Assembly: GCA_000004985.1 (NCBI GenBank)
Contig: GG738887.1
Length of the DNA stretch: 64,000 bases
DNA from: Naegleria gruberi
Lineage: Eukaryota
Reading direction: 5' to 3' (one strand)
Shown here: positions 1 to 63,881 of the stretch, piece by piece
Layout of the letters: each line of letters opens with the position of its first letter
How positions within the stretch are numbered: the first letter of the stretch is position 1
Translations under genes and position numbers: made by a program
The notes under the pieces: generated by a model
What the model was told of the DNA's origin: nothing
The model's input: only the letters and a program-made list of their open reading frames with translations
Database searches by the model: none

Positions 1-69
1 AACATCAAGTGGTTCTTGTGCAATATTGTCGTACTTTCTCTTCTTGATTTGTTGTTTGTGTTGAGACAT
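1..69 (-). CDS. 5' end of an unidentified gene running off the left window edge (MSQHKQQIKKRKYDNIAQEPLDV...)
   Basis: ATG at 69..67 (minus) with a frame open to position 1; only ~23 codons are visible. Confidence 0.25.
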   Translation of the reverse strand, partial: MSQHKQQIKKRKYDNIAQEPLDV

Positions 70-246
70 TTTTTCTCTGGTTTAAATTTCTGTTGAATAA
101 TCATCGTGATGGTTTTATTGCCCTTTCGATTGCTTTACATCTTCCATGATAAGGTGGATTTATAGGGCCTTAGTGGAAATTGTAAATTCTATCAAAGCAT
201 CTACCTAAGAACAAAGAAGGACAATGTGAAACTAATTCACCACCTC

Positions 247-1521
247 TCACAAAAGATTAGGATTTAAAAAGATAGGTAATCTCTTCTTGGATATTAGCTT
301 GTCCATACTCCAAATCTCTTCATAGTTGGTACCATCACTCGTTGAGATGATACCTCTTCCGTGCTTTTTAGAATAGTCCCACTTTCCCTTAAAGCAACCA
401 CCATTGGCAAAGTAATAAATTCCCTCACCATGTTTCTTATCTTGTTTCCAATTTCCCTCATAGACATCACCATTCTTATAACTGTACACTCCATATCCTT
501 CCTTAACATCATTCACAATGCTGCCTTCATATATTCCGTTGGAGAGAATGATTTTAGCTTGGCCAAACTTTCTGTCTCTTTCCCATGTTCCTTCATAGAC
601 AGTTACTCCATCACTATAGTACAGCGCTCCAAGACCATGTCTTTTACCTTCAATGAATTCACCCTCATAAACTGATTGGTCCTTGAAAATATATCTTCCT
701 TTTCCATGAGGAAAGTTATTGGAGAATTCTCCCTCATAAGACTCGCTATTACTGTACAGTAGGACTCCACTTCCTTCCTTCTTGTCATCTCTCCATTCAC
801 CTTTATATTTGTTGGAGGAGGTTTTTAAAACACCCTTTCCATGTTTCATTCCATTGACAAAAGTTCCTTTGTACATGGAGCCATCTTTGAAGATTTGACT
901 ACCTGCACCATTGGCTTTTCCATCTACAAAGTTGCATGTCACTACATTTCCATTGTAGCCAGTTAATGTTCCTGCACCATTTGGAATAAAATCGAAATGT
1001 TGACCAGTGTAAATTCCTTCTCCTTCAATTTCAAATGAATCAGTGTTATCATAGGATGGATCGTTCTTAAGGGCTGATTTGTTCAAACTGCTTCGAGAAG
1101 TATTTAGTGCTGAACGATGGTTTTCAATCTTTTCAAGAATTGGATCAGATCCCCTATCGAGTGGAACTTCTTCTGAGAAAGGTGCTTCAAGACCAGGCAA
1201 ATCTCCCTCATCAATCTCCTCAACAATCAACTTTTGGAGTGGTATTTGAGGTGAATATTTACACCAAAAATCATCATTTGTAAATGGTACACTGGATTCT
1301 TTCAACATTCCATTCAGATCATCAACGTGCTTTCTCGTTTTTTCTATCTGCTTGTTGATACCGTCAATGTCAGATTCATTTAGGAGTGTGGAATTGTTTC
1401 CCTTTTCGAGGGTAGGCATTGGAGTGACCATGATGGTATCGTGGGGTTGGTTGTGGTAATCAATCTTGTAATTAATATATGCTTGATGAGTTGGTGAATT
1501 AGGGTTATATTGAGAGAACAT
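247..1521 (-). CDS. MORN-repeat protein (≥8 tandem MORN motifs, YEGxFxxGKxHGxG)
   Basis: 424-aa ORF; the C-terminal two thirds is tandem 'Y-E-G-E/T-F/W-x-x-G-K/R-x-H-G-x-G' MORN units; the N-terminus is overlapped by another long frame (see findings). Confidence 0.75.
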   Translation of the reverse strand: MFSQYNPNSPTHQAYINYKIDYHNQPHDTIMVTPMPTLEKGNNSTLLNESDIDGINKQIEKTRKHVDDLNGMLKESSVPFTNDDFWCKYSPQIPLQKLIVEEIDEGDLPGLEAPFSEEVPLDRGSDPILEKIENHRSALNTSRSSLNKSALKNDPSYDNTDSFEIEGEGIYTGQHFDFIPNGAGTLTGYNGNVVTCNFVDGKANGAGSQIFKDGSMYKGTFVNGMKHGKGVLKTSSNKYKGEWRDDKKEGSGVLLYSNSESYEGEFSNNFPHGKGRYIFKDQSVYEGEFIEGKRHGLGALYYSDGVTVYEGTWERDRKFGQAKIILSNGIYEGSIVNDVKEGYGVYSYKNGDVYEGNWKQDKKHGEGIYYFANGGCFKGKWDYSKKHGRGIISTSDGTNYEEIWSMDKLISKKRLPIFLNPNLL

Positions 1522-32726: not shown

Positions 32727-35700
32727 ATGTGTAAGTAATTAACAACCCTAACATCAGTCATTAATCACCCAATAATCAAATAATCCATCCTGTTGATTAG
32801 CAAGTGATATTAAAGGAACATTGACCAAGATTAAAGGTGGTAGTGTTCAAAATCGTTTGGCAGCCATTGGTGCTTTATTTTCTTTAGCATCAGATGATGA
32901 TATTAGAGAGGAAATTAGAAATATGGGAGGAATTGGTACTCTTGTTGGATGTTTAGAGGATAATTCTGATCCACGTATTCCTAGACAAGCCTGTGGTGCT
33001 CTCTTGTAAGTTTTTTATTACCAACTAATTTACTTACATAATAATTATTTAATATTATAATTATAATAATTATTAATTGAATGATGATTGTTTATTTATA
33101 TTATATCTATCTAGAAACATGGCAAATGATGATCAATGTAGAGAGGAAATTCGTGATTATGGTGGTGTTGAATTGATGCTCAAGCTTATTGAAAATCAAT
33201 TCAAAGATGCAACCAGTGTTGAATATGCTACAGGTGCCTTGCTAAATTTGAGCTCTGACGATGACACTAGAGAAATGGTTAGAGAAGCTGATGGTGCTCG
33301 TATTTTGGCTCGTTGCTTGTCTGATGCTCCAAGTGAAGAATCTAGAAGAAACTCTGTTGGTGCCATTGCTCAATTGTGCTTTGATCAAGAATTTACTAAA
33401 CAATTGGTTTCTGGAGATGCTTTGAAACACATTGTTGAATGTTTAAACTCAAGTGATGAAGAAACCAGAAACAGGACCTCAGGTTGTATCTGGAATTTGA
33501 GTGTTACTGCTGATGAAACTAGAGAAGCTTTGGCTCGTGAAGGTTGTTTGGAAAGTTTGGTCAATTTATTGCAAAAAAGTGAGGATGTTAATGAAGATCC
33601 TGAAACTGTTGGTAATTGTGTAATGTAAGTTTTATATAATTATATAGAAATATTCTAATTTTAACATTTTACAATAATTACTATTGCACTACATTATATT
33701 GTCAAATGTATGATGTTTAAACAGGTGTCTTTCAATTTTAAGTTCAAATGACATGGTTGCTGAAACTTTACGTGAAATGGACGGATGTTTCGAAATGATT
33801 ATTAAATTATTGAGTAATTCTGATTCTACTATTGCTCAAAATGCTGCGGCTGCCGTTTGGAATTTGGCTCACAATGATGATAACAAGAAGGTTTTGGCCA
33901 ATTTGGACACAATGGCATCTTTGATTCCACTTTTGGATTCTTTCAACTCTGCTTCCGATTGGGAAGCTTTGGAAAAAGTTTTGGGTGCTGTTTTAACTAG
34001 CAGTACCAATGACAATATGGCTGATCAATTCCGTGAAAATTCTGGATTTGGTCCACTCAAGACAATCATTGAAGGCAAGGTTGATCCAACCACTATTCAA
34101 AATGACCAACATAAGAAGTGTGTATTATATGGTATTATTGGATTTGCCGTTTTGGCTTACAATGATAAGAATAAGGATGAGATTCGTGAATGTGGAGCTA
34201 TTGCTGACTTGATTGAATTACTTTCTTTGGAGTATGATGACGATTTACTTGAAAAGGTTACTGCAGCCATTTTGAACTTGACTCACAATATTGAAAATAG
34301 AACAGCCATTCGTAAGCTTGACGGTATTTCAGTTCTTATTGAGCTTCTCTACCATCACAATGAAACCATCTCAATGAACTCTGCTGGTTGTTTGTGGAAT
34401 TTGAGTAACGACGAGGCTTGTAAAGCAGTTATTCGATCTTTGGGTGGTTTAAAGCCATTGTTAGCTTTGATTGGAGGTGGCAAGGTTGAACCACGTTCAA
34501 AGAAGGACAGAAAGATTTCAAAGGAAGCTATTGAAGCTGCCAATCGTCTTGTTGAAGGTGAAGAAGAAGAATCTGAACCAGTTCCAGAAGAAAAATTCGA
34601 TGTTATGGAATTTGTTGAAGACATCTTCAATCCAAAGAAGGACTTTGAAAAGTTGGACGATGAGGATGGATCTTCTGATAAGAAGAAACCTCAAGTCAAC
34701 AGAAATGGTGAACAAAGAACCACTACTGGTGCTGGTGTTGAATATGGTGAAGAAACTGGCATGACTCCTGCCAAGATCATTGTTGGTGCTGCTCGTATCG
34801 ATATTAAGAACAGAAGAAAGGTTGCAGAGGCCGAACGTGAAAAGAAGGAGGCAGAAGAAAGAGAAGCCAGAAGAAAGGAACGTGAAGAAAGAGAACGTGA
34901 AAGAAAACGTAAGGAAGAAGAAGAAAAGAAGAGAAAGGAAGAGGAGGAAAAGAAGAGACAAAAGGAAGAGGAGGAGAGAAAGAAGAAACTTGAAGCCGAA
35001 ATGAAAAAGAAGGCTGAAGAGGAAGCTGAAAAGGAAAGACTCCGTTTGCTTGCTGAAGCTGAACAAACAAAGAATCAACTTAAGGAAGCTTTCAATGCCA
35101 AACACAAGAGAAAGGGTGTTAAGGATGAAGACATTGATTGGGATGAAATCTATGAAGATGGATTCACTCCTTCTGCTACTAAGGATGAAGCCAAGGACAA
35201 GTTGGAAGGTCAAATTGATGAATATTCCAATCTCATTGACCCATTCAATAATAATGGTGTTTATGATCAACTCACTCCTGATGATATCAAATTCATTGAA
35301 AGTGAAATTGAAAGAGCTAAACGTTTCCTCGCTGAAAATCCAAATGCTACCAAGGAACAAATTGATGATGCCAGAAGAGAACTTGATGCCAATGTCAAAC
35401 CAATCATTGAAAGAGCTAAGGCCAGAAAGGTTCTTGGCGACATGACCACCAGCATCAGAGATCGTCTCTTGAATGACTCTGAATTGTTGAACAATTTGAC
35501 TCCTGAAGAAAGAAAGGAATTAGAACAAGCTGTTGCTGAAATGGAACAATGGTTACGTGACCATCCAGATGCTACCAAGGAAGAAATTGAAGAAAAGGAA
35601 CGTGAATTGCTTGCCAAGATTAAGCCAATTTTGGCTCGTGCTGCTACCAGAAATGATTTGGAAAATTATGCTCATGATTTGAGAAAGAAGGCAGCCAATG

Positions 35701-38700
35701 AAGATGATGACATTGATTTTGACTTGTTGGGTGATGAAGATAAGGGTACTTTCCATGATGCTATCAAGGAAATTGAAGATTTCTTACTTGAACATCCAAA
35801 TGCCTCTGCTCAAGATATTGAGGACAAGAAGGATGAAGTCAAGAGGCGCATTGATCCAATCATTAAGAAGGCCAAGGCCAAGAAGGATCTCTTACAATAT
35901 GCTGCTGACATGAGAGATAGATTGAACAATGATCATGATTTGAAGAAGAGACTCACTCCAGAAGAAAAGAGATCTATTGAAACTGCTTTGGATGACTTTG
36001 ACAAGTGGATTAAAAACCATCCAAATGCTGATGCTGAAAGCTTGAACAAGCAAAAACAAAGACTCAAACAAAAGTTGGATCCAATCGTTTCCAGAGCTGA
36101 TGCTCACAACAACTTGGACGAATACATCAACAGAACAAGAAAGAGAATTGATGATAATGATGATTTGGGTGAATTGTTGGATGATGCTGACAAGAGAACT
36201 CTTCAAAAGGAATTGAAGGATGCTGAAGAATTCTTGAAGAAGGTCGAAAAGGAACCAGTCAAATTCACTGCTGAAGAAATCGACAACAAGAAGAAGGAAA
36301 TCAAGGAAAAGCTTGCCCCTCTTATTGAAAAGGCTGAAAAGAGAAGAGAACTCAAGGACTATGCCAGCCAAATTCGTGACATTGCAAGCAATGATAATGA
36401 ACTTGCTGAATTTATCACACCAAAGGAAAGAAAGTTGCTCGAAAATGAGGCTAAGGAACTTTCTGACTGGGTAAAAAACAATAAGAAGGCCACTCCTCAA
36501 CAAGTTGAAGAGAGAAGAAAGAAGGCTGAAGAAAAGGTTCAACCAATCTTGGATAATGCCAATCAAAGAAAGGCTCTCAAGGAAACTGTTCAAAGATTGA
36601 GAGATCGTTTGAATGATGACAAGTATGTCGAAAAGTTGAAACCAGAAGAAAAGAAGGCTCTCAAGGATGCTGCTGATGAATTGGCCAACTTTTTGGCTAA
36701 GAATCCAGAAGCTTCTGCCAAGGAAATTGAACAACAAAGAGAAAAGACCAATGAAAAGGTTCTTCCAATCTTGGACAGAGTTAGAGAACAAATCTCACTC
36801 GAAAATCATGTTAACAATGTTAGAGATAAGGTTAGAGATGATCCAGCATTGAACAAATTCTTATCTGATAAGGAGAAGAAGGCCATTGAAAAGGCTGCTC
36901 AAGATGTTGAAAAAGTCCTTGCTAGTAAACCATCCATTAAGGATACCAAGAAGGCAAGAGAAGATTTCAATGATGCTGTCAAGCCTCTCCTTGAAAATGC
37001 TGCTGCTAGATCTAAACTTGCAATCTATGGTGATAAGGTTTTGGATGATGTCTTGTCTGATCCACATACAAGTGATAAGGATAAGGAAGCTGTCAAGAAG
37101 GCAAAGAAGGAATTGATTGATGACTTTTTGGCTAAGAATCCAGATGCCACTAAGGAACAACTTGATCAACAAAGAAAGAAGTTCGATGAAGCTGTTGCTC
37201 CAATCACTGATCGTATTAATAAGAAGAAGGAATTGGAAAGAAAGATCAATGATATCAAGAGAAAGTTGGATGATCCAGATTCTGCAATCTGTTCAAAGGC
37301 AACCCCAGAAGAAAGACAATATTTGGCCTCAAAGGTTGATGAATTGTCTAAATTCTTGAAGGAAAATCCAAATGCCTCTGCTAAACAATTGGAAGAAAAG
37401 ATTAACGAATTCAACTCTCAAGTCGAACCAATTGCCAAGACATGCGAAAAGAGAGACCAATTAGAAAAGCAAGCAAACACTATCAGAGACAGATTAGTTG
37501 ATCCAAATGACGATCTCAACAAGTATATGAGTGAATCTGAGAAGACTCAACTCAGAGACGCTACCAATGAAGCTCTTCGTTTCTTGGAAAAGAATCCATC
37601 TTGCTCATCCTCAGAAGTTGCTCAAGCCAAGAAGAAATTGGACGATAAGACCAAGGAATTGGTTGAAAAGGCCAAGGCTAAGGGTGGTTTGTATAAGAGA
37701 GCTGGTGGACTTCTTTCTGATGTTAACAATTATGGTGAAGGCGGTCTTGGAGGTAAATTGAACAGTGTTGAAAAGAGCGAAATTGCTGATAAATGCAATG
37801 ATATCATCAATCACTTGAACAAGAATCCAAACCTCTCAACCAAGCAAATCAAGGAAAAGGAGAAGGAACTCAACAAGGTTGTTGCTCCAATTCTTGATAA
37901 GATCAGAGAAAGAGACAATCTCCGTGAAATTATTAATGGTATTCGTGATCAAATCTTCAATATTGATGATAAACTTGAAGATGACAAGTCAGATGCTTCC
38001 TCTGATTCTGACAGTGATCGTGAAGATTTGGAAGATTTATTGGATGGACCAATCAAGAAGTCTAAGGCTCAAAGAGATGAAAAGGGTAAGACCGACAAGT
38101 TGGGTAACTTCTTGTCCAACGAGGAAAAGAAGAAGATTGACGAAACTACCAAACAAGCATTGCAAGCTATTGATTCTGATCCAAATCTTTCAGTCTCTGA
38201 CTTGAAGGAACAAGCAAGAAACCTCAAGCAAGACACTGAAAATATCTTGAAGGCTGCCAAGACCAGATCTGATCTCAACGACTATTTGAATAACATTCGT
38301 GAACAAGTCAAGGATGAAGATGGTATGATTGCTAATCACTTGAGTGAAAAGGATAAGAAGTTGATTGATGAAACTATTAATGAAGCACTCAACTGGTTGA
38401 ATAAGGAAGGTGCTAATGCTACACCAGAAGCCGTTGAAAAGAAGAAGAAACAAGTTATGGACAAGATTGATCCAGTCATTCGTAATGCCAAGCAAAGAGG
38501 TGAATTGGAATCAATTGCTAACAAGGTTAAGCAACGTTTAGAAGATGATGTTGATTTGACATCAGCTCTCAGTGAAAAGGACAAGAAGGCATTACATGAT
38601 GAAGTTCAAGAAATTCTTGATTTCTTGAAGAAGAATCCTAATGCTACTCCTGAACAAATTCAACAAAAGAAGAAGCAATTCGAGGAAAGAGTTCTTCCAA

Positions 38701-40871
38701 TTCTTGAAAAGGCTGAAGCCAGAAACAAGTTGAAGGATTTGACCAATGAACTCCGTACCAGACTCTATGATGAAGATGATCTTGGAAACAAGCTCAGTGA
38801 AGCTGATAAGAAGAAGGTTGAAAAGTTGATTGATGAAGCTGTTGACTTTTTGGAAACTAATCCAGATGCTTCAAAGGAAAAGATTGATCAAAAGAGACAT
38901 GCTTTGGAATCCAATGTCATGCCAATTATCAAGAAGGCTGAAAAGGCCAAGAAGGCTGCTGACTATGCATCTGCAATTAGAGACAATTTGGAAAATGATT
39001 CTCTCCTTAAGGATGCTCTCACTCAAGAAGAAAAGAAATTGATTGATACTCACACCAAGGATTTGCTTGACTGGATTGAAAAGAATGCAGCCACTGCTAC
39101 TTCTAATGAAATTAGTGATAAGGAAAGACAATGTAAGGAAAAGGTTGATCCAATCCTCAATAAGGCCAAGGCAAGAAATGCTCTCAAGGAAGATATTGAA
39201 AAGTTGTATGAAAAGTTGAATGATGAAAACAAGCACAAGTTCTCTGAAAAGGAAAAGAAGGCCATTCTCGATGAAATCAATAAGGCCAATGACTACCTTG
39301 ATACAGTTGCCAAGAATCCAAATACCACTTCTGATGATATTGAAAAGAAGAGAAACGAATTGAAGATTGCCACTCAACCATTGGTTCAAAAGGCCAAACA
39401 AAGAAAGGAATTGCAAGAATATGCTGCAGGTGTTCGTGATAAACTCCAAAATGATAGCAAGCTCACCTCTCGTATGACTCCAGAAGAAAAGAAGACCCTT
39501 GATAATGCTGCTAAGGAAGCTCTTGACTGGGTCAACAAACATGGTGATGATGCCTCATTGAATGATTTGAAGGAAAAGTTGCGTCAAACTAAAGCTAAGG
39601 TTGAAGCTACTATGCAACGTGCTGAGAAACATCAAAAGTTGGAAGATATGGCCAACAAGATCAAGGATAAGGTTGAAGGTGATTTGAAGGACTGCATGTC
39701 TTCAGAAGAAAAGAAGACTGTTCTCCAAGAAGTTCAAAAGACTCTCGATTGGTTGAACAAGAATAAGACTGCTCCAATTGGTGAAGTTGAAGCTCAACAA
39801 AGAGCTCTCGAAAATAAGATTGCTCCAATTATGGAAAAGGCTCAAACCAAGAAGGATTTGGCTGACTTTGCTAATACTGTTAGAGACAGATTGAAGAATG
39901 ATAAGGAACTTGCCAGTCTCTTGTCAGCTGAAGAAAAGAAGGCCATCAATGATGCTGTCCAAGAAACTCTTGATTGGTTGAACAAGAATCCAAATGCTTC
40001 TCTTGCTGAGTTGAAGGATAGAAAGAAGAAATTGGAAGATGTTGTTAACAATGTTCTTGGTGATAAGGAAGCTGCTGAAAACTTTAGAAATTATGCTGAA
40101 AAGGTTTTGGAAGTCTTGAAGAAGAATAAGCAAGTTCAAAAGGACTTGACTGATGAAGAAAAGCGTGCCATTCAAGACTTTGCTGAAGAAGCCAGAGATT
40201 GGTTATTAGAAAATCCAAATGCCACTGCCAGACAAATCAGAATGGAAAAGAAGAGATTGGAAGAAAAGTTGGGCAAGATTAAGAAATTCAAATTTGAAAT
40301 TCCTGCCACTCACTACATTGGTAACTTCTCAGAACGTACCAGATGGGGTGATGACAGTAAGCGTACCAAAGATATCAACTCATTATTGGGTTCATACATT
40401 AAGAAGGGTGACAAGGTTGCTACTACTCCTGTCAAGCCAACAGCCACCTCTACTCCAACAAAGACTCCACAAAGAAATTTGAAACCAGTTGCCACTCCAA
40501 AGAAGCTCACCAAGGAAGAAGAAGAAGAAATGAAATTGTTCGATACCATGAAGTTCAATAAGGGTGGTTTGATTCAAGCTAAATTACAAAGTCTCATGGG
40601 AAGTGTTGGCTCTGCAAGTGCTGTCAGCGGTTCAGTTGTTGAAGAAGAAGAAGAACCAGCTGTTGTTTATCCATACTCTGAATTGAAGAATAACAAGCAA
40701 AAGAAGTATCCATCAGGTATTGACATTAACAAGAGAGAACAATACTTGAGCAATGATGAATTCCAACAAATTTTCAAGATGTCTCGTGATGAATTCAAAA
40801 ACTTGCCAGAATTCAGACAAACCAAATTGAAGAGAGATGCTGAATTATTTGCCTATGCTTATGAACTTTAA
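32727..40871 (+). CDS. giant (~2,600 aa) multidomain protein: armadillo repeats, then an E/K/R-rich single-alpha-helix segment, then ~22 tandem Hsp70-lid-like helical repeats, then a C-terminal villin headpiece (VHP) domain
   Basis: exons 32727..32730 (ATG+T), 32801..33005, 33115..33624, 33725..40871 (introns 70, 109 and 100 nt, all GTAAGT...AG with continuous frames); ARM units (GALLNLSSDDD..., AVWNLAHNDDN...); charged block 34795..35060; repeats 35190..40290; C-terminus 'YLSNDEFQQIFKMSRDEFKNLPEFRQTKLKRDAELF' is a VHP. Confidence 0.7.
35190..40290 (+). repeat. in-frame tandem array of ~22 diverged ~72-75-aa coding repeats (Hsp70 SBD-alpha lid-like unit)
   Basis: each unit follows ...[R/K]xxLxxYAxxxRxxLxxDxxLxxxLxxEEKKxIxxAxxExxxWLxxNPNA[ST]xxExxxKxKELxxxxxPIxxKA...; it aligns column by column with human HSPA8 '[72 protein letters not shown]'. 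Confidence 0.7.
40731..40868 (+). other. villin-headpiece (VHP) F-actin-binding domain at the C-terminus of the giant protein
   Basis: 'LSNDEFQQIFKMSRDEFKNLPEFRQTKLKRDAELF' versus the villin HP '[35 protein letters not shown]'. Confidence 0.75.
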
Positions 40872-54055: not shown

Positions 54056-56831
54056 TTACTTGACTGAAGAGTAGGTGTTGATTTTTCCATCAAAGGAACA
54101 GCTCAATAAAGTAGTAGAATTTTTAAATTTAACATCAGAAACAACATCTGAATGATATCCAATAATTTTCTCAATGCACTTTTCAGATGTTGTCAAATCA
54201 TAAAGGTACACACATCGATCTTCACTTCCACAAGCAATGTATCGCATACAAGGGCTTATAGCATTTCCAATGGAATGGATCGAATTCTTATGTTGACTAT
54301 ATCTTCTAATTGGATCTTGTTGCCTTGCATCCCACAGCTTTACACATCCATCAACGGAGGAAGTAAGGAAAAAGTTGATCGAATCGCTAGTGGCATTCGG
54401 AGAATTATTTAGAGAAATGGTATGAATTGGTCTTTCATGGGCATTTTCAATTGATCTTACTACTGTATCTTTGCAAACGTCATAAATCTCCAAAGTTTTA
54501 CTAGAATATCCAAGTAAAATATAATTTGACAAGTAGGAATTTGGACATGTTAGGGCTGTAATCTTTTGGGCCTGTCTGCTTTCGAAAACATGACCAAGTT
54601 TGTACTTGTGATTATCTACTTGTCTGTTTAAGAATCAATTGATTAGATGAGTAAATATGATATTAAACATACTTTTTCAAATACTTTTCATCAGAGTTTG
54701 TACTCTTGTGAATATAGTACTTGTAAATATACATCTTATTAGAGCTCGAAAGGACGGTAAATCTATCTTGATGGAAGAAACTTGCATTATTTACACTCGA
54801 TTTGAAAATTTGCTCTGGTCTCTTGTTTTCCTCAGAGGTTGTACTCTTAATATTTCCCAAAATACTCTTAAAATTAATAGCTGGTTCAATTCCATTCTTT
54901 CCATTTTTCCAAATTGTTGCCGTATTGTCAGAGCTTGATGTTAAAATTAATTTTGATGAGAGTGTCCAATTGATTGAATTGACAGCAACAGAATGTTTCT
55001 CAAGTGGTACTCCCTTGTTCTTGTTTGATAGAGGAAGTTTAGAAAGCATGCAGAGCCCAGAATTAGATCCTGTTACAATAGATTCCTTATTGGGGGAAAT
55101 AGACATGCATAGAATTGGAGAGTTGTGAACTCGGAGCTCTGATGAAAGATTAATTGGAGGTTTTTCAAAACTCGGAGTGACAAGTTCTTTGGTCGTTGTT
55201 GTTTTCTTAATTGTAGATGAGGTAGATGATGAGGAAGAGGAGGTGGGTTTTTTCTTCAAGTGAGCAGGAACAAATGGTGCTTCTGAATAACCTGAAGATT
55301 TGATTCTTGTGGAAAAAGTTGATGGCTTGTCAACAAGTGCTTTGGTCTTTTTCTGAGGTGTTGGAGTAACCTTAACTAGTGTTCCTCTCAAATAATTGGG
55401 CAGTTCATCTGTATGAGTCATGGAAATGACGTCTCCTTCAATTTTAGTCTGCTTTGGTTTTAGGATGGAATCTGGAATTTCATTCTTCCTCTCGATGGTC
55501 ATAGATTGATGGTTAATATCCATGACATAGATATATGGTTGAAAGGCACTAGCTGCCACCAAACGTGTACTACATTCCTCAATGAATTGTGCATCAAAAG
55601 AGTGAAACAAGTCCTTGCATTGGTCTGTCACGTTTGCAATATCATACATTCTCTCAATCTCAAAAGATGACAGATCAATATCAACAGCCAATGATTTGGA
55701 GCATATCATTACATAGTCATTGTCATTCTTCGAAAAGAAATTCATCTTGGATGCACAATGTGAATACTCACATAGAGTCAGCTCTTGAGAATCTTCCTCA
55801 GTATCGAATTGTTTTTGAATGAAATTATGTTGCTGTCTCCAAATTGGCTCACTACTAATGACTTCAAATGAGGGTATTGGAGATTTCTCCTCTGGCTTGA
55901 TGAACTTTTTAATCTTCTTGTTGAGGTCAAATTCGTGAAGCAGTTTCACCCAAAGGCACTTTAAACTCTCATCATTTTTCGTCTCGTATATTTGAACTAT
56001 TCCATTACTAAAACCAATCATGAATCTATTCACGCCATATTCCTCACAAACTGAAATAATTGGATACGGTGAGAGAACTCCTGATTTGTACAATACTTTC
56101 CTCTCATAAATATCCCATATCTTAATTACAATAGAAACTTTCAATCAGAATTATCAAATATTGAACACACAAACCTTAAAAGTTCTATCTTCGGAAACAC
56201 TAATGATACAATGTTGTAAATGTCTCAAAAACAAAACCTCAGTCACGGGAGATTGATGCCCCTCCAAGCTCAGTATCACCTTTGCCAGTTCTATATGATA
56301 AATTAATATAGAATCTTCCAATCCAATATACAACAATTCATCGTTATCGCTAAACTTTACAAATGAAACATTTCCAACATTTGATCCAATCACCACTCCA
56401 TCATCCTGAAATCCATCCCGATATGCAAGAACATTCCACAACTTTACACAAGAACTGGATGCTGAACATAACATTTCAGATTTTCGATTTCCAAAGCAAA
56501 CACAACTAATCGGATCTTCCTTTTCATGAGGCAGTATCACAATTGGCTCCAAATCATCATCTATAACAGGTGTCAATACAAGGGCTGCCTCATCCACCTC
56601 GTCGTCATCCCCCAATTCTTGTTTGATTCTTGTATTATTTGATTTTCTGATAACATCATTGCTTCCACTACTACAACCCGATAACATGACATTCCAAATC
56701 AATACTTTTCCTGTCGATTCACCTCCAGCCACCAACATTTGAGAGGAAGTAGACCTCGAAATGGCCACACTCGTAATGTTTGTTCTCGGAGTTGATCCTT
56801 TCAGTATGCTTACTAATTGATGTTTCTTCAT
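54056..56831 (-). CDS. large WD40-repeat protein, multi-exon, specific family unknown
   Basis: three consecutive minus ORFs (56867..56154, 56144..54663, 54532..54056) with WD40 units (e.g. 'GKVLIWNV', 'SSCVKLWNV', 'GCVKLWDARQQ', 'LLSCSFDGKINTY'); likely ATG at 56831..56829; intron positions not resolved. Confidence 0.55.
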
Positions 56832-57095
56832 TTTTTTAAAGTTGTAGAATGGGTATGGAGGGAACATATAATTTCATAATACAACAATCATTTATGGGGA
56901 TTGGTGATGAATTTGCTGGACTATCATGAATTATCATGTATTGAGATGATTAATACACATTGAGAGTTGACAATATCGGAATAACATGATATAATAATTA
57001 TTGTTTTTTTAATAAAATTAACAAAATTTGAAATTAAATTTCTACTACTACATATACTATTATTCGATTAATCCTAAAATTTGTTGTGATAGCAC

Positions 57096-57770
57096 TTAAT
57101 CAGACTTTTGCTTTTGATTGGCCAAATCAACAATTTGGTTATTAGCATACATATAGACAACATATGGCAAAGCAGTAGGAATGAGAGACAAGATGAAGAA
57201 GACGATCCAATCACCAACGTGGGAAGCGTGCTTTCTATCATATTCAGCTTGAGTCATGACTGGAATAGCTGGCAAAACGTTACTCTTAGAGATGAGCTTC
57301 AATGACTTTTCGTCCTTTTCAGCAGCTGGAGCCAATCTGTAAGTGGCCAAAGCATGTTGAGTATTAATTTCACCAACACTCTTTGGAACAATAGTATACT
57401 TGTAAGAGACACGGTCATTTGGAGCAACCTTTTCAAAACTAGCCTTGGTTTCACCTTCAGCAAGTTCGAATTGAGCTTCTGGCCATTCATTGTCCTTAAC
57501 ATCAATATCATAAGCAGTTTCTTCACCAACATTGATAACAGTGATCGTGAAAGTAATATTAGTATTGACGATTGGTTCGGCTGGAGAAACACTCTTGTGG
57601 AGGAAAAGTCTTACATTGTTTTGTTGAGTTGTTGTTGTTGTGGTAGTAGATGTTTCATCGACAGGGGTGGCTGTAATGTCTTCATCTTGAGCCAAAACAG
57701 ATGTTATTGTGCACAAGGCGAACAAAATGGCCAAAATAACGGCGAGAGAGAATTTCAAAGACTTGTTCAT
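57096..57770 (-). CDS. SSR2: translocon-associated protein subunit beta (TRAP-beta / SSR2)
   Basis: signal peptide, lumenal domain, single C-terminal TM and a short tail; 'ITVINVGEETAYDIDVKD...FE', 'APNDRVSYKYTIVPKSVGEIN', 'ATYRLA', 'AEYDRKHASHVGDWIVF' parallel human SSR2 '[26 protein letters not shown]...[21 protein letters not shown]...ITYLA...REFDRRFSPHFLDWAAF'. Confidence 0.7.
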   Translation of the reverse strand: MNKSLKFSLAVILAILFALCTITSVLAQDEDITATPVDETSTTTTTTTQQNNVRLFLHKSVSPAEPIVNTNITFTITVINVGEETAYDIDVKDNEWPEAQFELAEGETKASFEKVAPNDRVSYKYTIVPKSVGEINTQHALATYRLAPAAEKDEKSLKLISKSNVLPAIPVMTQAEYDRKHASHVGDWIVFFILSLIPTALPYVVYMYANNQIVDLANQKQKSD

Positions 57771-58109: not shown

Positions 58110-60236
58110 TTAAAAGCTCTTCAAAGAGGATTCCATCAAGTTTTGCAATCTATTGACCATTGATCTTGGATCATCCAATAAACCGGCACTGATGAGAGCA
58201 TTATCAAAGATTTGTTCAGCAACAAGCTTGGCCAAATCTGGATTAGCTGACTTGGCATTGAAGAGTTTCATGATGAGTGGATGGCGAGGATTGATTTCAA
58301 CTTGTTGTGGAGAGAGGGCAATATCTTGATTTTGCAATTTACGAATCATTCTGAGGGAGGCATTTTCTGGATTCTTAATGACAGCTGGAGTTGTTGAGAG
58401 ACGCTTAGAGATCTTGGCAGATGAAACCTTATCCTTCAATGAGGTTTGGAACCATTCACACAATTCCTTAGATTGAATTTCAGAGAGTTCATTTTCACCA
58501 GATGTCTTGTCAGCTTCATCATCTTCCAATTCAGCTCTATCAATGGCCTTAGTTTCCTTACCATTGAAATAACCAATTGAACCAAAGACAAAGTCATCAG
58601 GTCCATCATAACCGAACAAGACTTCGATACCCTTCTTCTTGAAAACTTCAAAGTATGGAGAGTTTTCGGCATATTCTCTAGTTGGAGCAATGAGGTAGTA
58701 AATTGTCTTTTGTTCAGTTCCCATTCTGTTAATATATTCTTCCAATGTTGTCTTTTCACCCTTTGGTAAGGCAGATGATTCGTACATGAGCAATTTGGCA
58801 GCTTCATCCTTATACATGTAATCAGTGACAACACCTTCCTTAATGAACTTGTTGAACTTTTCATAGAAACTAATGTACTTTTCACGATCTTGCTTCATCA
58901 TGTCATTGAAGAATTTGGTAATTCTCTTAACGAGGACAGATTTAATCTTTTGAATGAGTGGAGAATCTTGCAAGTGTTCTCTGGAAATGTTCAATGGTAA
59001 ATCTTCAGAGTCAACAACACCCTTCAAGAATCTCAACCAATCTGGGAGAATATCTGGATGCTTGGCACGAATCAAAACTCTTCTACTGTGAACATTGACA
59101 CCAGGTTCCATCTTACCCATACCCAATGATTCAGTGTGGTGATCTGGGACGTAGAACAAGGCATTCATATTCAATGGAATATCCAAGTTAAAGTGGAGAA
59201 TATAGAGTGGGTTTCCACCATAGTGTGAAAGATACTTGTAGAATTCTTGATGTTCTTCAGCAGTGACAGAGTTCTTGCTCTTCAACCAGACAGCATCAAG
59301 AGTATTGACCTTGGCACCGTTCAAAATGATTGGATAAGAGACAAAGTTACTGTACTTTTGAATAATCTTTTGAACAGTATCCTTGAAAGAGAATTCCTTT
59401 TCATTCTTCTTCAAATAAATGACAATCTTTGTACCTCTGGCAACTCCTTCAGCTTCGGAAATTGTGTAATTTCCTTCACCAGTACTTTCCCAACAATATC
59501 CAGGTTGACCTTTGATAGCAGATCTAGTATAAATACGGACCTTATCAGCAACCATGAATGTACTGTAAAAACCAACACCAAATTGACCAATAATGTTGGA
59601 TGTAGCTTCACCCTTATCGGAAGCTTCCTTAAGTTGTTTAACAAAGGCACGAGAACCACTGTGAGCAATAGTACCAATATTCTTGATTAATTCTTCCTTG
59701 GACATACCAATACCAGAGTCTTGAATGACGAAAATATTATTCTTATCATCACAAGAAATTTGGACAGATAATTCCTTTGAAGGATCATCAACCTTGTCTG
59801 GTGAAACTTGATTCATTCTTCTAACCTTTTCCAAAGCATCGGAAGCATTTGAAATTAATTCTCTGATGAAGACTTCCTTGTCAGTATAGAGAGCAGAAGC
59901 AACAATGTGTAAAAGTTGTTTAGTTTCAGTTTCAAAAGTCTTATTTTCCTTGGCACCAACAATGTGTTCAGTTTCTCTAATAATATTTTCTTCCTTGAGT
60001 TCATTGACTTCGGCATCCTCAAAAACATCATCATCAATAACATCCTTCTTTTCATTTCTAACAAATAGTTGTGATGAGAAATTAGCAATCAATTGTTGTT
60101 GTTGTTGATATGATGAACAAGAATTCTTTGAAAGAACGGAAGAAGAAGATGGCAATGCTGATGATGAACATCTCACAGCAGCAGAACGCTTTGAGACGAG
60201 CGAACGGACGATTTTACCAGAGTTTCTGCTCAACAT
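58110..60236 (-). CDS. TRAP1: TRAP1, mitochondrial Hsp90-family chaperone
   Basis: 709 aa from the ATG at 60236; N-terminal presequence (MLSRNSGKIVRSLVSKRSAAVR); Hsp90 ATPase signatures 'ELISNASDALEK' and 'IGQFGVGFYSTFMVADKV'; no C-terminal MEEVD. Confidence 0.85.
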   Translation of the reverse strand: MLSRNSGKIVRSLVSKRSAAVRCSSSALPSSSSVLSKNSCSSYQQQQQLIANFSSQLFVRNEKKDVIDDDVFEDAEVNELKEENIIRETEHIVGAKENKTFETETKQLLHIVASALYTDKEVFIRELISNASDALEKVRRMNQVSPDKVDDPSKELSVQISCDDKNNIFVIQDSGIGMSKEELIKNIGTIAHSGSRAFVKQLKEASDKGEATSNIIGQFGVGFYSTFMVADKVRIYTRSAIKGQPGYCWESTGEGNYTISEAEGVARGTKIVIYLKKNEKEFSFKDTVQKIIQKYSNFVSYPIILNGAKVNTLDAVWLKSKNSVTAEEHQEFYKYLSHYGGNPLYILHFNLDIPLNMNALFYVPDHHTESLGMGKMEPGVNVHSRRVLIRAKHPDILPDWLRFLKGVVDSEDLPLNISREHLQDSPLIQKIKSVLVKRITKFFNDMMKQDREKYISFYEKFNKFIKEGVVTDYMYKDEAAKLLMYESSALPKGEKTTLEEYINRMGTEQKTIYYLIAPTREYAENSPYFEVFKKKGIEVLFGYDGPDDFVFGSIGYFNGKETKAIDRAELEDDEADKTSGENELSEIQSKELCEWFQTSLKDKVSSAKISKRLSTTPAVIKNPENASLRMIRKLQNQDIALSPQQVEINPRHPLIMKLFNAKSANPDLAKLVAEQIFDNALISAGLLDDPRSMVNRLQNLMESSLKSF

Positions 60237-60981
60237 TTTTTTTTCAATCAAAAACTGAAGCTATTGATTGAAGATGGAACGGAAAGTGTTGTGCTTCCGA
60301 TCCAGAGCCATGTTTGCTTTCTTAATTGCTATTAAATGGAATAAGAAATTCCGATTAGTATTAATGAAAGTAGGTTGGGATTTTAAATTGATTGAGGGAG
60401 GTTGAATGATATATTTATTTGCTACTGATTGAGGAAGCACAGTTAGAAAACAATAGAGTTCTTCCTTAATATAATCAGTAACATTGAAAAGATACTATTG
60501 TTAATTCAAACAAGGAACATAAATTTCAAAGCTCAACTGAAACATCCTTTTAGTTAAATGAAGTTATTGCTAAGTGAGGTCTTCAACTTGAAATGAGATA
60601 TATTGTGTGGGTTTAACATAAAGGAATGGTTTCATTATCTTCCCCATGATCTGGAGATTATTCAATAGACCTGTTAAAGAGATCAAATCTCCATAATAAG
60701 ATCCAGAATCTTAAAGATGAAAATTCCGCTTCCTATCCAGATTTTCCGCACAACCACACAATCACAATCTTTGTTATCATTCTCACCTCAGCAGAAGTAA
60801 CAACAAATCATCAACTGTACCTCAGCAGTAACAAGAAAAACCATTTGAAAAAAAAATTGTTTAAGGTCGTGCTCGTCATTATTGTGCATGAAGAAAGTGG
60901 CCATTGTATTGTCATGTTGGTGGCTCTTGTTCATCGCTTGGAATTGCATGCACGAGTGGCTAGTATGGAAGATAACTGTTC

Positions 60982-61338
60982 ATGGCCAGCAACTCGTTGT
61001 ACCAAGGTTTGAATGTTCGTGATGCTAATGGTCGTGTGATACGTTCATTGGGACCTGAGACTGCAGTTACTGTCTATGGTATTATGGTTAAGGATGGAGG
61101 AAGATGGGCAAAGATTGGAACCAATGAATATGTTTCTGCTGATTATTTAAAAATGTCATGTGGATGTGGTGGAGGATACAATAATCAAGATCCAACACTA
61201 CCAGATAAGCTTCAATCACCCAAGCAAAAACTGGTGTACCGCCACTGGTTTCAGTCTGTGTTAACTTTTCCGCCACTTACTTCGGATACATCCCAACATC
61301 AGTCCGCCACAGGCAATAAGCAAGAATCGCTACACTAG
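60982..61338 (+). CDS. ORF with a bacterial-type SH3b-like domain ('LNVRDANGRVIRSLGPETAVTVYGIMVKDGGRWAKIGTNEYVSADYLK') inside a GC-richer (~45-48% GC) island
   Basis: ATG-initiated 118-aa ORF; a 45-aa signal-peptide-like ORF (MKKVAIVLSCWWLLFIAWNC..., ATG 60888) lies just upstream in another frame; composition differs from the flanks. Confidence 0.35.
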   Translation: MASNSLYQGLNVRDANGRVIRSLGPETAVTVYGIMVKDGGRWAKIGTNEYVSADYLKMSCGCGGGYNNQDPTLPDKLQSPKQKLVYRHWFQSVLTFPPLTSDTSQHQSATGNKQESLH

Positions 61339-61999
61339 TTTTTAATATGACATTTCAATCAAAAAATCAAATGGTTTATTACATATTGACATGTGACATT
61401 AATCCAAACAAGATTATTTCAACATTCAAAATTCAATCAATAATTGAATGAAATTTATCTCATTTGTAAATAAACAATCGTTTCCCAGTAGCAACATAAC
61501 AATATCCAGTTATTTCATCAATTGTTAATCCAATAATGTCACTACCAACGACTTTCGAATTGATTTTTTTGCATTTGCTAGAAAGTTGAATGAAAGACAC
61601 AGAGAAGGTTATAAGAAATGGGGTGGTAAGTATCGTATGTATTTATTCGTGAATTTTTTGTTCGATTCCATACGAATTGTTTCAATTTTGCAAAGTATGA
61701 TAATATTTAGACTCCAATTTGATTGAATCAAAATTCTCGAACTTCATTGTAAAACAAATCCTATGTACTTGAAGAAAATCTCAAAAAAGAAAGTATTATT
61801 TCAGAAATTGGACATTTTGGATTTCCCATTTTGTTGATTTACCATTTAAGTAGGTTGAGTTAGACCAATTTAAACAAATCAATGTGAAACTATACCCAAT
61901 CAAAAACAATCAAAACAAATTGATATAATTCAATCACGCTTTTCAAACTAACTTTCCAATCAACTTATCAACTCTCCAACTCTAACTCTATACGAAACC

Positions 62000-62449
62000 A
62001 TGAAAAAGATACTCTTCATAGTCCTTGTATGCATCTTGGCTGCTCTCTTCTTGAATGCTGATAAGGCAGATGGTCAATTGACATACAGCTATCGTTATGC
62101 CTACAGCTACCCTTCCACCTATGGTTACTCATATCCATCTAGTTACGGATACGGCTATCCTTCAACCTATGGTTACTCATATCCATATAGTTACGGATAT
62201 GGCTACCCTTCAACCTACGGATACGGCTACCCTTCAACCTACGGATACTCATATCCATCCTCCTATAGCTATCGTTACGCCTACAGCTACCCTTCCACCT
62301 ATGGTTACTCATATCCTTATAGTTACGGATACGGCTACCCTTCCACCTATGGTTACTCATATCCATCTAGTTATTCTTATGGTTATCCTTACTCATATGG
62401 TGGCTATGGATATCCTTCTTCATATGCTTATTCATACAGATATTGGTAA
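62000..62449 (+). CDS. secreted Tyr/Gly/Ser/Pro-rich tandem-repeat protein (YGYSYPSS / YGYGYPST octapeptide repeats)
   Basis: signal peptide MKKILFIVLVCILAALFLNA, then ~16 octapeptide repeats with a higher-order ~180-nt duplication (YRYAYSYPSTYGYSYP... occurs twice); ends YRYW*. Confidence 0.55.
   Translation: MKKILFIVLVCILAALFLNADKADGQLTYSYRYAYSYPSTYGYSYPSSYGYGYPSTYGYSYPYSYGYGYPSTYGYGYPSTYGYSYPSSYSYRYAYSYPSTYGYSYPYSYGYGYPSTYGYSYPSSYSYGYPYSYGGYGYPSSYAYSYRYW
62080..62440 (+). repeat. 24/48-nt coding tandem repeat with a higher-order ~180-nt unit
   Basis: recurring 'tacccttccacctatggttactcatatcc...' and 'agttacggatacggctaccc' DNA units. Confidence 0.6.
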
Positions 62450-63209: not shown

Positions 63210-63881
63210 CTATTTTTTCTCTATTAAGGCATCAATGACCAAATTAACAGAATCTTGCAAGATTTTTCTCAATTTCTTCAATTTTTCATAATCCAATGTC
63301 TTGATTTCTTCTTCTGTGAAGGTTGCTCTTTGCATGACATCCGAAACCATCTCCTCTTGTTGTTCACAATCACTTTGAATTGAGGTCAGCAATGTTTTTA
63401 CCATTTCCCATCGCTTATTCATTGACAATTCCACACCCGAATCATTTTCCATCATTTTACAATTTGGTGGTGATGAGAATGATGATGTTGGTGGAACTGT
63501 TGTTGTGCCATGTTGAATGGTTGAAGTATTATCTACCAATGATTTGAATAATTGTTGCTCACCACCATCACGACTCGATTTTTCATTCAAAGTTGTGTTT
63601 TTTGCTAAATCTCCTTGATGATCAGCTTGATGTGATGTAGCCACTGCAATTTCGGAAGCAGTTTCCTTTTGTCTTTTCAAGCTCGGTTCAAGATTTTGCT
63701 CCTCTTGTTCATCATTTTCTTCTTCAATTTCATCAATTTCATCAATTTCATCATCATTTTGTTCATCAATTTGTTCCTCTTCATCCTCATCATCGTTTTG
63801 TGAGCAATCCCTGAATTCATTGTAGGATATCTTTCTCTTTTCACGTAATTGGTACGGTGATGACTTTGAAGTGGACGACAT
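63210..63881 (-). CDS. acidic (poly-Glu/Asp) nuclear-type protein of unknown function (223 aa)
   Basis: ORF from an ATG; 'DDEDEEEQIDEQNDDEIDEIDEIEEENDEQEEQ' tract. Confidence 0.35.
   Translation of the reverse strand: MSSTSKSSPYQLREKRKISYNEFRDCSQNDDEDEEEQIDEQNDDEIDEIDEIEEENDEQEEQNLEPSLKRQKETASEIAVATSHQADHQGDLAKNTTLNEKSSRDGGEQQLFKSLVDNTSTIQHGTTTVPPTSSFSSPPNCKMMENDSGVELSMNKRWEMVKTLLTSIQSDCEQQEEMVSDVMQRATFTEEEIKTLDYEKLKKLRKILQDSVNLVIDALIEKK

Follow-up and report, generated by a model that had tools for sequence, protein, structure and literature searches.

How a domain typical of bacterial cell-wall hydrolases comes to be encoded in the nuclear DNA of an amoeba, and whether the DNA that carries it is of foreign origin, is the question raised by one end of a 64,000-nucleotide stretch of Naegleria gruberi nuclear DNA (contig GG738887.1; this whole stretch is called the window below). 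At positions 60982-61338 (+) the window contains an annotated 118-aa open reading frame (ORF) with an SH3b-like sequence, and the initial annotation had described the surrounding segment, 60860-61340, as a GC-richer island and a candidate horizontally acquired or foreign segment. The ORF is 100% identical to an NCBI/UniRef entry, 'predicted protein [Naegleria gruberi]', located on a 508-kb scaffold. Our analysis indicates that the locus is most likely a relic or pseudogene, the disabled and truncated paralogue of a Naegleria family of secreted enzymes that hydrolyse peptidoglycan.

The SH3b (bacterial SH3, SH3_3-type) domain occupies positions 61009-61164 (+) (LNVRDANGRVIRSLGPETAVTVYGIMVKDGGRWAKIGTNEYVSADYLKMSC) and includes the peptide LNVRDANGRVIRSLGPETAVTVYGIMVKDGGRWAKIGTNEYVSADYLK, encoded at 61009-61152 (+) within the 118-aa ORF, on which the domain had originally been proposed. 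The Pfam profile SH3_3 (PF08239) matches residues 14-57 of the ORF, but with 20.2 bits and E = 7e-4, below the gathering score of 27 bits. Because the Pfam match alone is weak, the assignment rests on an exhaustive sequence search and on structure prediction. A phmmer search with the ORF, which covered 1.84 billion representatives, returned 22 matches. A Naegleria paralogue was matched at E = 1.2e-26, and two bacterial multi-SH3_3 proteins, P0003 (E = 7.2e-11) and P0004 (E = 2.1e-10), ranked after the Naegleria relatives; both are unambiguous SH3_3 carriers (SH3_3 E = 1.7e-47 and 1.1e-57, respectively). The homologues P0007, P0023 and P0005 score 31.0, 36.2 and 27.0 bits against SH3_3, and a profile of the family recognises the SH3b of the window at E = 1e-10, so that on sequence comparison the domain is, by transitivity, a divergent SH3_3 member. 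A word-index search of proteins recovered nothing but the ORF, and searches of NCBIfam and of PDB sequences with the single ORF were uninformative.

An AlphaFold2 model built from a 14-sequence family alignment predicted residues 10-55 with confidence (predicted local distance difference test, pLDDT, 82-89) as a five-stranded beta-barrel with strands at residues 10-13, 19-23, 33-37, 40-44 and 50-52; residues 59-118 remained below 50. The top PDB matches of the model in Foldseek were 7qeh (SlpA), 8b2s (an SH3-like module of a fungal GH24 enzyme), and 2krs and 2kt8 (SH3b of Clostridium perfringens), with probabilities of 0.72-1.00 and weak E-values (0.018-0.6). Taken with the predicted fold, the sequence matches make the SH3b assignment sound, and the bacterial-type domain of the cell-wall-hydrolase kind that was first noticed here is real. 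A high-GC bacterial metagenome contig (L005) also carries an SH3b domain 48% identical to that of the window; on this contig, positions 19-516 (+) encode two SH3b-like modules linked by about 17 prolines, of which the second (QGLNVRDAIGGRVLRALP...) is the 48%-identical one.

The closest relatives of the window sequence are N. fowleri FDP41_009823, N. gruberi NAEGRDRAFT_74668 (XP_002670397.1, 313 aa), N. lovaniensis C9374_004067 and C9374_002860, and P0007, which is encoded on the metagenomic contig L002 (ENA ERZ27315067). They share a layout consisting of a signal peptide, a linker, a Cys-containing 'WPETRCTNV' motif, the SH3b domain, 'KMSC', another linker and a GH108 ('TtsA-like') domain. 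The matches of the paralogues to GH108 (PF05838) range from E = 1.9e-10 to 1.6e-13, and the family profile also matches the GH108 structures 7dnp, 2is5 and 2ikb in the PDB. The window SH3b is 47-61% identical to members of the Naegleria group and 24-43% identical to more distant metagenomic members. With the four Naegleria proteins named above it shares lineage and module order, its SH3b being 49-58% identical to theirs, and both the pre-SH3b WPxTRCTxV and the C-terminal AFARxLNExHRxxYxxWG motifs are recognisable in the window. The window copy differs from them in that it is without the GH108 core, has its modules in three frames and contains an in-frame stop, so that the enzyme cannot be encoded.

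P0007 has the closest SH3b (61% amino acid identity), and L002 is about 79% identical to the window at the nucleotide level in two patches, one at the end of the SH3b and the other in the C-terminal motif; judging from these similarities, P0007 and the window copy probably belong to the same paralogue lineage. P0007, however, is an intact signal-SH3b-GH108 protein whose gene has one GTAAGT intron, and L002, which derives from an uncharacterised eukaryote and also bears protein-kinase genes, was checked for synteny with the window and has none. A second contig, L001, is N. gruberi-type paralogue DNA whose GH108 domain is interrupted by an intron of 51 nt (GTAAGT...ACAG). The single GTAAGT introns of the two contigs lie at different GH108 positions (L001 859-909, after GVTPS; L002 approximately 1100-1165, after YAYDKSQ), which points to introns gained or lost independently once the family had reached eukaryotes. 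Since both L001 and L002 carry spliceosomal introns, the family appears to have been long resident in these genomes. In N. fowleri FDP41_009823 (P0023) the SH3b is duplicated in tandem, each copy lying between RCTNV and KMSC ahead of GH108, so that family members differ in their number of SH3b copies.

Comparison with these paralogues at the DNA level located the lesion on the 5' side of the SH3b. In every intact paralogue WPxTRCTxV directly precedes the SH3b, whereas in the window its counterpart WPATRCTKV (60983-61009, +), identified by tblastn against the WPETRCTNV of the paralogues, is read in frame 2 and the SH3b in frame 1. The WPATRCTKV segment is identical to L001 in 24 of 27 nt, and the SH3b segment shows about 70% nucleotide identity over ungapped columns. 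DNA alignments with both L001 and L002 reveal a 10-nt deletion between ...AAGGT and TTGAATGTT, where the intact paralogues read ...GT TGATAATGCA TTGAATGTT and ...GT GGACTCTTCT CTCAACGTG. At the deletion site the ancestral frame runs into a TGA stop codon (61010-61012, +), and a frameshift-aware alignment puts the shift at 61011. It is because of this deletion that the SH3b is in frame 1 and the leader in frame 2. Of the two causes originally suspected to separate them, an intron or a frameshift, it is thus the frameshift that the comparison bears out.

The annotated start of the ORF overlaps the displaced motif. The ancestral Ser-Trp codons (tcATGg) supply the ATG at 60982, the first nine residues of the ORF, MASNSLYQG, are an out-of-frame reading of SWPATRCTKV, and frame 1 is closed by a TAA at 60973-60975, just 5' of the ATG; on this reading of the sequence the annotated start is fortuitous. 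In the ancestral frame 2, an open stretch at 60845-61012 (+) (LKKKLFKVVLVIIVHEESGHCIVMLVALVHRLELHARVASMEDNCSWPATRCTKV, followed by the stop) represents a remnant of the signal and linker; it has no ATG start, beginning with TTG at 60845, and ends at the TGA at 61010-61012. Within it, CATGTTGGTGGCTCT-TGTT resembles the signal-peptide codons of L002 with a score reached by 18 of 500 shuffles, which is at most suggestive of homology between the two signal-peptide DNAs. The signal-peptide-like ORF that had been reported upstream in another frame is present as well: it runs in frame 0 from an ATG at 60888 to 61022 (+) and encodes 44 aa (MKKVAIVLSCWWLLFIAW... / MKKVAIVLSCWWLLFIAWNCMHEW...), and both peptides quoted in the initial annotation are found in the window. 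This hydrophobic ORF may either contain the original start, cut off by an indel near 60905-60915, or be the old hydrophobic leader read in the wrong frame. The corresponding 5' lesion would be either an 11-nt insertion with a duplication of ATTGT or the loss of an ATG at 60845 (now TTG).

The 3' side of the SH3b was analysed for the remainder of the enzyme. The ORF continues after the SH3b into a tail (61165-61338, +; GCGGGYNNQDPTLPDKLQSPKQKLVYRHWFQSVLTFPPLTSDTSQHQSATGNKQESLH) that has no homologues, is predicted to be disordered (pLDDT <50) and contains 45% G+C. One match of the tail to a long tandem-repeat protein was judged spurious. The GH108 core of about 140 aa would be expected at 61165-61558 (+), where nothing recognisable was found in any frame; the part at 61340-61558 has 27-28% G+C and looks intergenic. 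An hmmsearch of the six frames of 60700-62000 with the family profile gave no match between profile positions of about 105 and 254. A frameshift-aware protein-DNA alignment of 61165-61558 did not reveal the core either, with scores of 24-28 against means of 27-28 for 60 dinucleotide shuffles, nor did local DNA alignment to two paralogues, which did not exceed 200 shuffles over the whole of 61165-61558 or over its AT-rich part. The N-terminal catalytic signature of the domain, E-G...D-x-G (SEGxCQNWASDSGN in the Naegleria paralogues), is likewise not found in 60700-62000. Two candidate patches of the core were considered: 'GGYNNQDP' at 61170-61195, compared with 'GGYNGQDP' of the paralogues (26 nt, 84.6%, E = 0.003), and 61219-61268, compared with the 'QGKIGYTCMGVTPS' region of L001 (50 nt, a borderline score reached by 2 of 200 shuffles). 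Neither was accepted as homology, because both are weak and they are mutually inconsistent. No repeats of the non-homologous middle part that could point to a repeat or transposon as its source were found elsewhere in the window.

Beyond this blank region the family resumes with its C-terminal motif, in frame 2 at 61559-61627 (+) (AFARKLNERHREGYKKWG / IDFFAFARKLNERHREGYKKWGG / IDFFAFARKLNERHREGYKKWG), 220 nt past the stop codon of the annotated ORF and in a different frame from it. This motif was detected by tblastn (70% identity to residues 285-301 of N. lovaniensis P0006, E = 7e-4), by the family profile (positions 254-273, E = 2e-6) and at the DNA level, where 54 nt are 79.6% identical to L002 (E = 3e-8); a separate comparison gave E = 2e-4. 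It conforms to AFARxLNExHRxxY..WG, and as a fragment it confers no GH108 membership on the locus. The end of the family proteins, FLxGWLxRAxxRDxYIxNY, was sought after 61627 and did not rise above shuffles.

These features show a broken gene of the Naegleria SH3b-GH108 family. The 10-nt deletion split the leader and 'WPATRCTKV', in frame 2 and ending at the TGA, from the SH3b in frame 1. The catalytic core has been lost or changed beyond recognition, with only the 21-residue C-terminal motif left downstream, out of frame. The annotated 118-aa 'protein' is then most likely the longest surviving ORF, with a fortuitous ATG and a tail of predicted disorder and without homologues. Homology to the family, modules in different frames and an ancestral frame cut short by a stop are the marks expected of a pseudogene, and loss of function of the window copy is the likely consequence.

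Several observations weigh against this reading. The reading frame of the SH3b segment has stayed intact, the segment has 49-61% amino acid identity to the Naegleria group, and its branch is not visibly longer than that of P0007. The blank core lies between two well-preserved patches, a pattern that uniform neutral decay would not give; to account for such patchy preservation, the core must have been deleted or replaced, or else selection must have acted on the SH3b part for a while. By our own estimate, which assumes about 43% G+C, the chance that a 57-codon tail stays open after the SH3b is about 3%. At the 5' end, the similarity from which the choice between an ATG at 60888 with an indel and a start lost at 60845 has to be made is weak. 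Finally, no orthologue of the locus was found: neither the ORF nor the N. gruberi paralogue had an exact match when looked up in assemblies, searches of proteins and assemblies revealed none with the same architecture, and a metagenome scan returned only the high-GC bacterial SH3b contig.

The alternative to which these observations lend most weight is that the ORF, after loss of the catalytic domain, has been maintained as an independent protein that binds peptidoglycan. Such a protein would be cytosolic unless spliced to a leader, and could recognise or sequester wall fragments. The ORF is intact over 118 codons, its SH3b core is well conserved and is predicted to fold confidently, and the SH3b part is far better preserved than the adjoining catalytic region. 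A 34-nt GT..AG interval (60956-60989) could in principle link the hydrophobic leader to the SH3b frame, and a minimum intron length of 30 bp has been used for N. fowleri (PMC8296547). However, the donor of this interval, GTGGCT, is non-consensus in comparison with the GTAAGT of the paralogue introns. The start of the ORF is fortuitous, its first nine residues being a conserved motif read out of frame, and the N-terminal Cys flanking the SH3b, kept in nearly all aligned members, has been lost from the frame; the only aligned member without it is P0071, whose N-terminus is missing. The tail without homologues and with predicted disorder, and the failure to find an orthologue of the same architecture, also speak against a maintained protein. 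We therefore regard retention of a functional SH3b-only protein as unlikely, leaving a small chance that its product is still used. Still less probable is the fuller version of this idea, that the ORF is a retained eukaryotic SH3b protein that binds bacterial wall as a lectin-like sensor or decoy, maybe rejoined to its leader by a very short, non-canonical intron.

It could also be argued that annotation missed an intact multi-exon SH3b-GH108 gene, in which the AT-rich 61340-61558 is an intron. A GTAAGT at 61628 lies just after the C-terminal motif, a pyrimidine-rich ...TTTTTTTGCATTTGCTAG precedes the motif, and the spacing from SH3b to motif, 413 nt, is close to the 438 nt of P0006. Nevertheless, the six frames of 60700-62000 contain no GH108 core, and nothing like the family end FLxGWLxRAxxRDxYIxNY follows downstream. 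We also enumerated all GT..AG joins. None with a GT[AG]AGT donor, the type used by the paralogue introns and by likely introns in the window, restores the frame, as far as can be inferred from sequence. The donors that do restore it are non-consensus (GTGGCT, GTCATG, GTGTAC and others), and each of these joins deletes the conserved WPxTRC motif or cuts AFARKLNERH. In addition, the 10-nt deletion falls between two contiguous conserved motifs, where there is no room for an intron. On this evidence no predicted intron rescues the gene, and the multi-exon explanation, to which we assign a very low probability, is effectively refuted.

The remaining explanation follows the original proposal of a foreign segment marked by its G+C content: DNA gained recently from bacteria or phage, or else contamination or a chimeric join in the assembly. 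The segment 60860-61340 is in fact the richest in G+C of all 481-bp segments of the 64 kb (mean 35.1%, sd 3.1%), but its content is 43.0%, with a maximum of 45.0% in 200-bp segments, and not the 45-48% reported earlier. The next richest 481-bp segments of the 64 kb have 42.2, 42.0 and 41.6%, each is coding, and the flagged region is only about one point higher. The GC-richest spot near the locus lies in the neighbouring repeat gene at 62000-62449, which reaches 46.5% in 200-bp segments. Long ORFs of the window contain 36.3 +/- 2.0% G+C (maximum 41.3%) and 30 +/- 4% at third codon positions (GC3), and the mean outside long ORFs is 31.6%. The SH3b-coding part, with 39.1% G+C and a GC3 of 21%, is host-like or lower and does not deviate from the long ORFs of the host; it is the 5' stretch and the tail of the ORF without homologues (45.4%) that account for the excess. 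The composition profile consequently gives no mark of foreign DNA in the part that encodes the bacterial-type domain.

The taxonomic distribution of the domains bears on the same explanation. Both SH3_3 and GH108 occur mainly in bacteria and phages, and the Naegleria GH108 domain shares 51% identity with a bona fide bacterial GH108 protein, whose gene lies among bacterial genes in an Actinomycetota metagenome-assembled genome. The nearest relatives of the window sequence are nevertheless Naegleria paralogues, with bacterial SH3b proteins more distant. Paralogues in three Naegleria species carry signal peptides, and L001 and L002, the two intact paralogues of which DNA was examined, have spliceosomal introns at different positions, which therefore indicates long residence in the lineage. 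The locus lies between eukaryotic genes on one continuous sequence. A contaminating sequence or a chimeric join is not indicated, because the N. gruberi protein identical to the ORF belongs to a scaffold of 508 kb and the flanks are ordinary eukaryotic genes. We consider a foreign segment extremely improbable and the proposal largely refuted. An ancient bacterial or phage origin is plausible from the sequence relationships, as a property of the SH3b-GH108 family and not of the island. Anaerobic fungi also possess the family, and GH108 is among the carbohydrate-active enzyme families discussed for anaerobic gut fungi (bioRxiv 10.1101/487215).

Comparison with known wall-active proteins shows what is unusual in the Naegleria family and in its disabled member. 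The window domain resembles the SH3b (PF08239) of bacterial and phage endolysins and wall hydrolases in sequence (E = 7e-11 and 2e-10, for example to P0003, a protein with a phage lysozyme and six SH3_3 domains), and it shares the small five-strand barrel with 2krs, 2kt8 and 7qeh, the lipoteichoic acid (LTA)-binding domain of SlpA; association with a muramidase is likewise found in the intact family. It differs from them in being encoded in a eukaryotic nuclear genome, in single copy and no longer joined to an enzyme, and the intact Naegleria family flanks its SH3b with two conserved Cys residues. The fungal GH24 muramidase of 8b2s, the second-best structural match, is also a eukaryotic secreted muramidase with an SH3-like wall-binding module, but it belongs to GH24/GH184 and not to GH108 and has another domain order, and the likeness is structural, with no close sequence relationship shown. 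Intact Naegleria paralogues match the GH108 profile PF05838 of bacterial and phage enzymes such as 7dnp, 2is5 and 2ikb. Bacterial GH108 domains are, however, typically paired with PG_binding_3 (as in P0072), whereas Naegleria pairs GH108 with an N-terminal SH3b and a eukaryotic signal peptide; the window copy differs further in having no GH108 domain at all. Our literature search found no paper linking Naegleria and GH108, and a Naegleria pangenome paper mentions a 'large arsenal of lysozymes' (PMC9928731).

The genomic setting of the locus is that of an ordinary N. gruberi region. The window contains 35.1% G+C overall and densely packed long ORFs, in agreement with the figures published for N. 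gruberi NEG-M (33% GC, 1.7 exons per gene, introns averaging 203 bp; PMC8296547). On one side are eukaryotic ORFs for an HSP90-family (TRAP1-like) protein (58110-60251, -), translocon-associated protein beta (TRAP-beta; 57096-57770, -) and WD40 proteins (54663-56867, -). The HSP90-family ORF extends over 713 codons without interruption and starts 630 nt from the relic; with its N-terminal Ser/Gln-rich extension, its sequence looks like that of a mitochondrial TRAP1-type chaperone. On the other side, the ORF at 62000-62449 (+) begins like a signal peptide (MKKILFIVLVCILAALFLNA...) and continues with about 130 residues that are almost all Y/S/G/P repeats (YPSTYGYSYPSSYGYG...), encoded by 24/48-nt tandem repeats at 62102-62401, and the ORF at 63210-63881 (-; 223 aa) contains a long acidic D/E-rich tract derived from 9/12/18-nt tandem repeats (63705-63794); neither has a Pfam match. 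Farther away, an uninterrupted ORF of 2372 aa (33753-40871, +) lies in a region of raised G+C (38-39%) with strong positive AT and GC skew, and contains several long antisense ORFs that are probably spurious.

The value of these results is mainly corrective. A broken lysozyme gene most likely underlies the 'predicted protein' annotated in N. gruberi, which would be no more than its longest remaining ORF, and the combination of a GC bump with a bacterial-type domain provides no evidence of recent gene transfer at this locus. As a degenerate member of an established type, the relic would not surprise a specialist and is of low general interest. It does, however, point to a small, uncharacterised and intron-bearing Naegleria family of secreted SH3b-GH108 muramidases. 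Its intact members are presumably secreted or phagosomal, where the SH3b would dock on peptidoglycan and the GH108 domain would cleave the glycan strand, and they may thereby help a bacterivorous amoeba to digest its prey. The family is a reasonable candidate for such a role, with turnover of its members by gene birth and death.

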